This document shows positions 20,497 through 40,838 of a stretch of 64,000 bases of DNA, one piece after another; position 1 is the stretch's first letter; each line of letters starts with the position of its first letter. Source of the DNA: Escherichia coli (GTDB taxonomy: Bacteria > Pseudomonadota > Gammaproteobacteria > Enterobacterales > Enterobacteriaceae); NCBI RefSeq assembly GCF_001677475.2, contig NZ_CP015229.1; one strand, 5' to 3'. A program made the translations under genes and the position numbers. The notes under the pieces were generated by a model. It worked only from the letters and a program-made list of their open reading frames with translations. It ran no database searches and was not told the DNA's origin.

Positions 20497-21516
20497 TTAC
20501 TTCTTATGACGAATACGCGGGTTCACCACGCCGTACAGCAGATCGACCAGCAGATTGACGAGGATAATCATCGTCGCCACCAGCAATACGCCACCCTGCA
20601 CTACCGGATAATCGCGGCGTTGCAGTGCGTCAATCAACCAGCGCCCCAGACCAGGCCACGAGAAGATGGTTTCGGTCAGAATCGCCCCCGCCAGCAATGT
20701 TCCCACCTGAAGGCCGATAACGGTCACTACCGGCAGCATCGCGTTACGCAGCGCGTGGACGATAATCACCCTAAGGCGGGTCAACCCTTTGGCGCGCGCG
20801 GTGCGGATATAATCTTCACCCAGCACTTCAAGCATCGAGGAGCGCGTCATACGCACAATCACCGCCAGCGGTATCGTACCCAGCACAATGGCGGGCAGGA
20901 TCATATGCGCGACGGCATCGATAAAGTTACCGTCTTCACCCCAGATGGCGGTGTCGATTAGCATAAAACCGGTTAACGGATTGGAATCATCGAGGAACAC
21001 CATGTCGCTCACGCGACCGGAGACGGGCGTCAGGTTCCAGTGCACCGAAACCAGCATGATCAGCATCATGCCCCACCAGAAGATCGGCATCGAGTAGCCG
21101 GTCAGCGCCAGACCAACCGCCGTGTGATCGAAAATGGAACCGCGTTTAACCGCAGCCAGCACACCGACCGGAATACCGACCGCAGTCGCAAAAATCATCG
21201 CGCAGACACCAAGCTCCAGCGTGGCCTGAAAGCGCGGCACGAACTCTTCCCAAACCGGGATGCGGCTTTTCATCGAAATGCCTAAATCGCCGTGCATTAC
21301 GCTCCAAATGTAATTGAGATACTGCTGCCACATCGGTTTATCTAAGCCGAGTTCAGCCAGCAGCTGCGCGTGACGCTCTGGGGAGATCCCACGTTCGCCC
21401 GCCATGATCATCACCGGATCGCCGGGGATCATGTGGACAAAGGCAAAGGTGAGAAGGGTAATACCGATAAACGTGGGGATGACGAGTCCCAAACGTCGGA
21501 GAATAAACTGCAACAT
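20497..21516 (-). CDS. dppB: dipeptide ABC transporter permease DppB
   Basis: 339 aa from ATG verified at 21516..21514 (MLQFILRRLGL); the track ORF carries a 21-codon upstream extension. Confidence 0.95.
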   Translation of the reverse strand: MLQFILRRLGLVIPTFIGITLLTFAFVHMIPGDPVMIMAGERGISPERHAQLLAELGLDKPMWQQYLNYIWSVMHGDLGISMKSRIPVWEEFVPRFQATLELGVCAMIFATAVGIPVGVLAAVKRGSIFDHTAVGLALTGYSMPIFWWGMMLIMLVSVHWNLTPVSGRVSDMVFLDDSNPLTGFMLIDTAIWGEDGNFIDAVAHMILPAIVLGTIPLAVIVRMTRSSMLEVLGEDYIRTARAKGLTRLRVIIVHALRNAMLPVVTVIGLQVGTLLAGAILTETIFSWPGLGRWLIDALQRRDYPVVQGGVLLVATMIILVNLLVDLLYGVVNPRIRHKK

Positions 21517-21622
21517 AACCCGGATTCTCTGTAGTGACCCGCAGCCTGGAACTGCGTGTCTGTATTGCTCACAAATCAATTCCCGCCCGTGCCGGACAGG
21601 GAATGAAGTATTGCTGCCGGAT

Positions 21623-21648
21623 GGCGCTGCACGCAGAGATGCAGCGCC
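21623..21648 (-). promoter_or_regulatory. intercistronic stem-loop in the dppA-dppB spacer
   Basis: Perfect 9-bp palindrome GGCGCTGCA..TGCAGCGCC, plus a second hairpin TTCCC..GGGAA nearby, in the 150-bp dppA-dppB gap. Confidence 0.4.
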
Positions 21649-21666
21649 ACCGGGTATGGCTTTTAA

Positions 21667-39694: not shown

Positions 39695-40405
39695 TTATTG
39701 GGTTGCAGTAACTGCTGTAGTCCAGGCCTGATTAAACGCCTGATGCTGTGCCGGTAATGGCGCAATCAGTTTGTTATATTCACTTGCCTGTTGTGACGTC
39801 GGGAACTGGATGCCATTTGCTACAAAGCTCACCTGAGTACCTTGCTGAGCAATGTAGTCTCCAACCATCACCAGTTGTTGCGTGAAAGTTTGTGCCGCCG
39901 GAATCAACGGTTGCAATGCATCAGCTGGTGTCGTTACCACTTTGGTGAATGCCTGATCAAAGACCGGTTTCAAATCATCGGTCTGTTTTAGCGCAGAGTG
40001 CGCAGCATCGGCCTGCAACTTCGCATTTTGCAGTTGTTGCGCCAGCACACCTAGCGAACCGTTCATTTCACGCAGCGGACCGCTTTGCGTAACGTAATCC
40101 TGCGGTACGCGAATTGCGTTAACGCTGTCTACGACCGGGCGCAGACCGGAATCCATCGCCTGATTCACCTGCTGAGAATAACCATACAGAATCGCGTAAT
40201 CAGAGACAAAAGGACCAAACTGTTTTTTCTGATCGGCAGTCAGGGTTGGTAGACGTTCGCCGCTACGCATCACTGTATTCTGCAGGAAGTCGATAAACGC
40301 TTTACGCTGATCGCCTTCTTTATCAAAACACCCACTCAGGCTAACTACCATTAATAACGCCGCAAGAGGCGCAAACCAGCGAGAGCAGGACTTTCCTGTC
40401 GCCAT
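39695..40405 (-). CDS. yiaF: lipoprotein YiaF
   Basis: 236 aa from ATG verified at 40405 (MATGKSCSRWFAPLAALLMVVSLSGC); lipobox present. Confidence 0.88.
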   Translation of the reverse strand: MATGKSCSRWFAPLAALLMVVSLSGCFDKEGDQRKAFIDFLQNTVMRSGERLPTLTADQKKQFGPFVSDYAILYGYSQQVNQAMDSGLRPVVDSVNAIRVPQDYVTQSGPLREMNGSLGVLAQQLQNAKLQADAAHSALKQTDDLKPVFDQAFTKVVTTPADALQPLIPAAQTFTQQLVMVGDYIAQQGTQVSFVANGIQFPTSQQASEYNKLIAPLPAQHQAFNQAWTTAVTATQ

Positions 40406-40838
40406 TTTCTTACTCCTTTCACCCAAAAAAAGCGCACAACGACACACGCGTGTCTGACGTGACAAGGATAGTCCAGGACAGGCTTGCAGGATACCCTTTC
40501 TACGTAATCTTCCTGGTAAAATCATGGAGAAAATGAAACAAGGTTAATTTGTTGTTTCATTGTTAAAAAATGATAGTGCCGTTGCTTTTTTTGTTGCCAG
40601 AGATTTACGCCTTCTCAGAACGTTAGATTTTCGAAATCTTTACAAACCGGGAGTGGTAAGAGATATATCGGCATTTATCAGATCGTTAGGTGGCTATAAG
40701 TCACGCTAAATGACTGGCTGAATCGAATCATAGCCAGAGCATGCCCTGACTTCACCCCGCTGTGTCTGCTTTTCCCGACTATTCTTAATGAGCTTCGATG
40801 CAATTCACGATCCCGCAGTGTGATTTGAGGAGTTTTCA

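Follow-up and report, generated by a model that had tools for sequence, protein, structure and literature searches.

The dppA-dppB spacer and its fold

The dpp operon of Escherichia coli raises a question about the structured gap between its first gene, dppA, and the distal genes dppBCDF: does the gap hold binding protein and permease at a fixed ratio, or is it a point of control in its own right? The window, meaning the whole 64,000-nucleotide stretch of DNA that was analysed, carries this gap at 21517-21666 (150 nt), with the transcript sense on the minus strand. Upstream lies the dppA coding sequence (21667-23274, minus, from the ORF list), whose TAA stop codon at 21667-21669 (minus) is given both by the ORF list and by the annotation of matching E. 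coli genomes. Downstream lies dppB (20497-21516, minus, from the ORF list), whose ATG start codon at 21514-21516 (minus) is placed by the ORF list and by alignment with dppB of K-12. Stop and start codons flank the interval exactly as an earlier reading, made from the letters alone and called here the sequence-only reading, had drawn it. A 401-nt query across the spacer matches 5422 of 5426 complete E. coli genomes, where the genes are annotated as dppA and dppB.

A search of 21517-21666 against Rfam returned no family at E <= 1. Rfam matches occur only upstream of dppA, and comprise a naRNA4/REP325-type element (72.5 bits, window 23844-23924), an RtT repeat (100.3 bits, window 24018-24151) and a tRNA (window 24189-24262), which is proK in K-12. 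An antisense ORF of 96 aa (21404-21694, plus strand) spans the spacer and appears as a 'hypothetical protein' in some RefSeq genomes. It is probably spurious, because the insertion present in K-12 interrupts it.

The sequence-only reading had described a perfect palindrome with a 9-bp stem together with a second hairpin, and had suggested folding the minus-strand transcript. That fold proves stable: RNA of 21505-21680 has a minimum free energy (MFE) of -64 kcal/mol, against -51.5 +/- 3.8 kcal/mol in dinucleotide shuffles (z = -3.26), and 0 of 200 shuffles were equally stable. The spacer folds as three hairpins, H1, H2 and H3. The perfect palindrome is found as described, with GGCGCTGCA (21623-21631) and TGCAGCGCC (21640-21648) separated by a loop of 8 nt, and forms the core of H1. 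The second hairpin is H2 (stem 21600-21582), which is terminator-like in a terminator scan. H3 is absent from the structures that the sequence-only reading named.

H1, a probable remnant of an inverted REP pair

H1 is a long hairpin with a perfect 9-bp core (21617-21654, minus), recovered by both folding and inverted-repeat search. The 9-bp palindrome occurs once in the window, against 0.06 occurrences expected by chance, and extends to 15-nt arms that are 87% complementary (21617-21631 with 21640-21654). With a median of 1 copy per E. coli genome and no second copy in the window, H1 was rejected as a dispersed REP element. Its ancestry is visible in related genera, where an intact inverted REP-type pair occupies the orthologous place in Leclercia (L004), Superficieibacter (L007) and strain RIT691 (L015). 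The outer flanks common to these REP pairs and to H1 are CCCGG(C/T)GGCGCTG ... CAGCGCCA(C/T)CCGGCAG. The outer arms of H1, CCCGGTGGCGCTG and CAGCGCCATCCGG, align to the outer halves of the three pairs, and the inner halves are missing. Because the intact pairs have the same outer sequences, the alignments point to H1 being the fused outer halves of an old inverted REP pair. As folded, H1 would likely serve as a barrier to 3' exonucleases for the dppA mRNA.

The REP-pair slot differs among loci. Six of them, from several genera (L005, L008, L010, L012, L016 and L028), carry another GC-rich repeat there (CCCTCTCCC...GGGAGAGGG..GGGTGAGGG), which we take to be boxC-like. From these comparisons, the repeat in this slot appears to have been replaced repeatedly, with the downstream leader fixed meanwhile.

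Within E. coli, variation at the upstream end of the spacer takes two forms. The spacer of K-12 measures 307 nt, compared with 150 nt in the window, owing to an inserted 157-bp BIME that separates the dppA stop codon from H1 (L001:1930-2090); it is absent from the window (junction 21654/21653). The element has the arrangement REP - IHF-type spacer - REP, and matches Rfam ES036/CssrF (56.7 bits) and, partially, naRNA4. This extra BIME is present in about 60% of E. coli genomes, K-12 among them. The uninterrupted short junction of the window is found in 2167 of 5426 E. coli genomes, O157:H7 among them, and most of the others are of the K-12 type. The second form of variation affects the loop-proximal bases of H1. 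At window 21639-21641 one arm has CAU where K-12 and the common E. coli version have UGC, and the window's version occurs in only 80 of the E. coli genomes. All three changes keep pairing (U.G to C-G, G.U to A-U and C-G to U.G), so that two wobbles become Watson-Crick pairs. This three-base difference could reflect selection for the stem or a template-switch 'palindrome correction'.

H2, a terminator-like hairpin

H2 is a GC-rich stem-loop (21572-21606, minus; core stem 21600-21582) with an outer UUC/GAA extension and a U-rich tail, AAUUGAUUUGUG. It was identified by the terminator scan and is present in both the MFE and the centroid fold of the spacer RNA. The scan reports 8 pairs, 6 of them G-C, a 3-nt loop and the tail AAUUGAUUUG, in which the U tract is interrupted. 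Most Enterobacterales have a hairpin at this position, with a sequence that differs between genera. Pectobacterium and Brenneria have a canonical terminator there, with a U6 tail; in Erwinia the tails are poor. On its modelled structure, H2 looks like a leaky intrinsic terminator or a 3' stabiliser. The spacer of Brenneria reaches 458 nt (L031:2040-2500): ahead of the conserved leader stand about four tandem copies of a unit some 75 nt long that closes with a canonical terminator (AAAAUCGCUCCUGGCGAUUUUUU).

The sequence-only reading held that intercistronic structure stabilises the dppA message or attenuates read-through, and so sets the ratio of binding protein to permease. Part of that stands: the structures are stable, a GC-rich hairpin recurs at the H2 position in most Enterobacterales, and as judged from the sequences its recurrence fits a role for dppA as 3' stabiliser or attenuator. 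The reading misses the RyhB match and H3. Because a complement to RyhB and a covarying hairpin both fall in its most constrained part, the spacer looks, at the sequence level, like an element regulated by iron through RyhB, and like more than a passive means of fixing how much binding protein is made per permease. That most constrained part is the 70-nt dppB leader downstream of H2; the least conserved is the H1 palindrome.

A conserved dppB leader with a covarying hairpin

For comparison, 80 dppB loci were fetched, and 31 Enterobacterales loci were compared. Spacer length is 109-458 nt in Enterobacterales and about 60-80 nt in Pseudomonas and in alpha- and beta-proteobacteria. Placed side by side, the spacers show no sequence conservation in H1 and H2. 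Downstream of H2 they share a leader of the form UUUGUGAGCAAUACAGAC - hairpin - GUCAYUASAGAGAAUCCGGGUUAUG. A covariance model of the whole leader (R1; 70 nt, 21511-21580, minus), built from eight length-matched sequences, scores 97.5 bits in the window by cmsearch. Its hits at E <= 1 fall on the orthologous position of 29 Enterobacterales loci, and for 24 of these E is below 0.01. ACAGAGAAUCCGGGUU (21517-21532, minus), the ribosome-binding region of dppB, is made up of invariant or nearly invariant columns of alignment A2. Insertions and deletions whose length is not divisible by three, together with paired substitutions, rule out a coding explanation for the leader.

The hairpin inside the leader is H3 (21536-21560, minus), GAC-ACGCAGUU-CCA-GGCUGCG-G-GUC, located by folding and by covariation; its loop CCAGG is kept in Enterobacteriaceae. 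In an alignment of 22 distinct sequences (A5), 90.7% of cells are paired, compared with 30-46% when partners are slid. Double-sided changes occur at 10 of 11 pairs, and 0 of 500 shuffles reached the observed scores. The alignment was fitted by a covariance model and hence leans towards structure; single-sequence folds, which place a hairpin of -10 to -24 kcal/mol here in all 23 species tested, and the slid controls agree with it. On the support of these two, H3 is a real conserved RNA structure whose pairs are kept by compensatory changes. RNAalifold found no structure in a MAFFT alignment, because the variable stems were misaligned. At a guess, H3 shields the 5' end of processed dppBCDF mRNA, or acts as a spacer that sets a duplex beside the ribosome-binding region.

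Complementarity of the leader to RyhB

The linker between H2 and H3 contains UGUGAGCAAU (21564-21573, minus), a proposed RyhB pairing site that lies at -57..-48 from the dppB AUG, in the invariant core of the leader. It is a perfect 10-nt Watson-Crick complement of RyhB nt 41-50 (AUUGCUCACA), the RyhB seed. The RyhB sequence was taken from K-12 ryhB, and all loci were compared with K-12 RyhB. A match in one sequence proves little; its weight comes from sliding boundaries, specificity, constraint within E. coli and predicted accessibility. Among 5000 shuffles of the spacer, 53 (about 1%) contain a complement of 10 nt or more to RyhB, wherever in RyhB it falls. The whole 64-kb window holds about nine 10-nt complements of RyhB, as chance predicts, and TGAGCAATGT (window 39846-39855, plus), which complements RyhB nt 39-48 and is antisense to ORF 39695-40525, was set aside as fitting that chance expectation.

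The energy of a windowed hybrid with the RyhB seed region is not significant, since 58 of 300 dinucleotide shuffles do as well or better. The windowed search was used because unconstrained RNAduplex of full RyhB against the spacer returns a meaningless 'duplex' of 95 nt. With the hybrid energy not significant, the case rests on exact complementarity, conservation and the literature. UGUGAGCAAU is unpaired in the centroid fold, with a mean probability of being unpaired of about 0.5. Opening it costs 3.6 kcal/mol (rank 45 of 174 windows), and the predicted net energy is -8.6 kcal/mol. Its 3' half is the most accessible stretch of the spacer; the 5' UGU is partly sequestered by the base of H2.

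The 30 nt around UGUGAGCAAU are identical in 5388 of 5426 E. coli genomes, while H1 varies. Across the 31 Enterobacterales loci, 22 have at least 9 nt complementary to RyhB, all within RyhB nt 39-52, and in most of the 31 the longest RyhB complement maps to that same segment, with boundaries that slide by lineage. The RyhB nucleotides matched are 41-50 in Enterobacteriaceae, 40-50 in Pectobacterium and Hafnia, 40-51 in Erwinia endophytica, 41-51 in Erwinia psidii, 39-48 in Pantoea and 44-52 in Rahnella bruchi. RyhB is generally known to be conserved in the species of these loci, and the presumed co-conservation of its seed rests on this. Counting against pairing, Yersinia, Edwardsiella and Arsenophonus have no such site near dppB, although Yersinia, at least, has RyhB. 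Two further observations temper the pairing reading. The duplex would be only 10 bp long and, at 48-57 nt upstream of the AUG, would lie beyond the region where pairing usually hinders 30S binding, which counts against it. The invariant block UUUGUGAGCAAUACAGAC of Enterobacteriaceae is longer than the RyhB match, and another constraint besides RyhB may act on it.

Ten K-12 small RNAs were compared over the 31 loci for complements of at least 9 nt. GcvB, OmrA/B, FnrS, Spot42, MicF, ArcZ and OxyS reach that length in 0-1 of the 31 loci and have no conserved complement there. CyaR has one in 13 of 31 loci, most of them over the dppB start codon. In the window it is GGGUUAUGUU (21512-21521, minus; -5..+5 of the dppB start), a perfect 10-nt complement of CyaR nt 8-17. 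These CyaR nucleotides are predicted to be unpaired in CyaR (P 0.91) and differ from the known CyaR seed. The CyaR match is kept only in the group of E. coli, Citrobacter and Enterobacter; elsewhere one mismatch at -2 breaks it.

Published evidence on RyhB, dpp and iron-sulfur clusters

RNA-seq of anaerobic fur and fur ryhB strains placed dppBCDF, without dppA, among new candidate RyhB-repressed operons (Beauchene et al. 2015, PMC4676285). RyhB effects in that study are generally about 2-fold, its main text gives no pairing site for dppBCDF, and the effect on this operon could be indirect. In ribosome profiling, occupancy of dppA is lower in a ryhB mutant, as for the activated targets shiA and cirA (Wang et al. 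2015, PMC4666370). A dppA fusion covering -300..+24 failed validation as a RyhB target in that work, which fits a RyhB site outside that fusion, and dppB-F do not appear in its table of RyhB targets and predictions. The same table includes eptB, the neighbour of dppA (window 24354-26078), as a validated RyhB-affected gene.

Assembly of DppBCDF requires the [4Fe-4S] clusters of DppD and DppF, one in each protein (PMC12136057; bioRxiv 10.1101/2021.04.01.438105), and the Fe-S ligand cysteines are present in the window's DppD and DppF. The literature searched held no report of a RyhB-dppB pairing site or of RyhB-dppB chimeras. Among the CLASH entries listed, which come from cells that were not iron-limited, there is no RyhB-dppB hybrid.

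A proposed two-part module and its rivals

The reading that we favour, with confidence only a little above even, is that dppABCDF contains a two-part post-transcriptional module, in which H1 and H2 serve dppA and a leader with a RyhB site serves dppBCDF. H2 would act as a leaky terminator or a processing boundary and, together with the REP-derived H1, would block 3'-to-5' exonucleases. The dppA mRNA would then outlast and outnumber the distal genes, because H1 and H2 end or protect the dppA message, and the 70-nt dppB leader would be present on read-through transcripts only. During iron starvation, the seed of Fur-controlled RyhB, with Hfq, would pair with single-stranded UGUGAGCAAU. Pairing would mask an upstream C/A-rich element, either an enhancer or a standby region, bring in RNase E, or do both. 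The dppBCDF mRNA would fall and the dppA part would stay shielded by H1 and H2. The logic would be one of iron sparing, as the DppBCDF translocator needs two [4Fe-4S] clusters and DppA none; the sequence evidence suggests that low iron turns down the Fe-S transporter core separately from dppA. Pairing of RyhB with UGUGAGCAAU in vivo, the route of repression, termination at H2 and the role of H3 are the steps of this scheme that we infer.

A more ambitious version, which we regard as improbable taken whole, makes the leader an undescribed control element found throughout Enterobacterales. It would combine RyhB at -57..-48, possibly CyaR at the start codon, and the CCAGG loop of H3 as a determinant of binding or processing, and would uncouple DppBCDF from DppA. 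RyhB-triggered cleavage that raises monocistronic dppA also belongs to it and, if true, would explain why dppA appears 'RyhB-activated' in ribosome profiling.

The proposed module has to be weighed against a passive structured spacer, in which H1 and H2 set a fixed high DppA:DppBCDF ratio, the leader is constitutive, and the RyhB complement is coincidental or inconsequential. The leader could then supply an RNase E site between hairpins, a 5' protective hairpin of processed dppBCDF mRNA, and a C/A-rich translation enhancer. We judge such a spacer rather unlikely. In its favour, the hairpins are stable and H2 is terminator-like, other genera have a hairpin at the corresponding position, and the REP element of malE-malF is a precedent of the same design. 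The invariant block exceeds the RyhB match, the RyhB hybrid energy is not significant against shuffles, and dppB-F are absent from the ribosome-profiling table (PMC4666370). A passive spacer leaves unexplained that the complement keeps following the sequence of RyhB even though its ends shift from lineage to lineage, that RyhB stands out among ten small RNAs, and that dppBCDF without dppA is RyhB-dependent in RNA-seq (PMC4676285).

Two further accounts shift attention away from regulation by RNA. According to one, which we think quite unlikely, H1 and the BIME are selfish or neutral repeat debris, nothing but the protein genes counts, and the fold simply reflects descent from REP sequences. 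H1 is indeed a likely REP-pair remnant, and E. coli strains differ both in its sequence and in the BIME beside it. Deletion of the K-12 repeat by Abouhamad and Manson in 1994 is said to have had little effect on dpp expression, which favours this account. It covers H1 at most, leaving the covariation of H3 and the near-invariant leader unexplained, and all three H1 differences between K-12 and the window preserve pairing. The other account, to which we give hardly any credence, puts an internal dppBCDF promoter in the spacer and takes the conserved block as DNA bound by RNA polymerase or by a transcription factor. The block does begin with TGTGA, resembling a CRP half-site, and dppBCDF is written as if it were a separate unit in the RNA-seq study (PMC4676285). 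Against a promoter, a scan of both strands of 21300-21900 finds no sigma-70-like site, and a partner CRP half-site at the right distance is lacking; the block stands directly after a terminator in Pectobacterium, and the covariation of H3 without sequence conservation points to RNA structure instead of a protein-DNA site.

Relation to known systems

The proposed module is of a known kind, combining discoordinate operon expression under small RNA control with classical hairpin stabilisation, and introduces no new principle. In isc, RyhB pairs at the translation-initiation region of iscS, whereas in dpp a conserved hairpin stands between the dppB AUG and the match, which begins 48 nt and ends 57 nt ahead of that codon; experimental support in dpp consists of RNA-seq candidacy. 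Differential degradation of iscRSUA by RyhB was reportedly described by Desnoyers et al. 2009 (EMBO J 28:1551). RyhB splits the polycistronic iscRSUA mRNA, and a strong structure in the spacer preserves iscR (PMC12533949). The likeness to the proposed dpp module lies in RyhB acting at the first intercistronic junction, in Fe-S-linked distal genes going down and in protection of the first gene.

Repeats of the BIME or RIP type (REP - IHF site - REP) occupy the same locus, where K-12 and about 60% of E. coli carry the 157-bp element. The strain of the window differs in having no BIME, and H1 is a different, older REP-pair remnant. The malE-malF spacer is reportedly a case of an intercistronic REP element conferring differential mRNA stability (Newbury et al. 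1987, Cell 48:297 and 51:1131). As in dpp, a binding-protein gene is followed by REP-type hairpins and then by permease genes, and hairpins that block 3' exonucleases leave more of the upstream message. The dpp spacer differs in that H1 is a single-copy, internally deleted REP pair, and in adding a terminator-like hairpin and a leader with a small RNA match.

The position of UGUGAGCAAU also recalls GcvB, which is said to act on gltI at -57..-45, in an upstream C/A-rich enhancer (Sharma et al. 2007). GcvB-gltI and yifK share with the proposed site an Hfq-dependent small RNA far upstream of the Shine-Dalgarno sequence, an ABC-transporter mRNA and a C/A-rich stretch, which in dpp is GAGCAAUACAGACAC. 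In dpp the small RNA would be RyhB, the site is within the operon instead of in a 5' UTR, and GAGCAAUACAGACAC is a putative enhancer. The ACA motifs of yifK are the second such case of an enhancer silenced by a small RNA (PMC3879156).

If RyhB pairs at UGUGAGCAAU, the pairing would tie together the RyhB dependence of dppBCDF in RNA-seq, the [4Fe-4S] requirement of DppD and DppF, and a conserved non-coding block within a textbook operon. It would be a second clear case, after iscRSUA, of a small RNA splitting a polycistronic mRNA at a structured spacer, and iron sparing would extend to peptide and heme uptake. The exact 10 nt of pairing would be K-12 3705838-3705847. The eye-catching palindrome of H1 is the least constrained part of the spacer.

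The oppA-oppB spacer

The oppA-oppB spacer of K-12 (L091:2015-2135) has the same design, a strong hairpin and then UGAUUUUUAU. Its complements to RyhB are 7-8 nt long: GCAAUGU at the oppB start (RyhB nt 39-45) and CUGGAAGC at +28 (RyhB nt 53-60). On these sequences they are probably due to chance, since they extend over only 7-8 nt and their order is non-colinear. The cysteine-rich C-terminal extension of DppD and DppF is reported for OppD and OppF too, and a chemoproteomics screen also flagged OppD (bioRxiv 10.1101/2021.04.01.438105).
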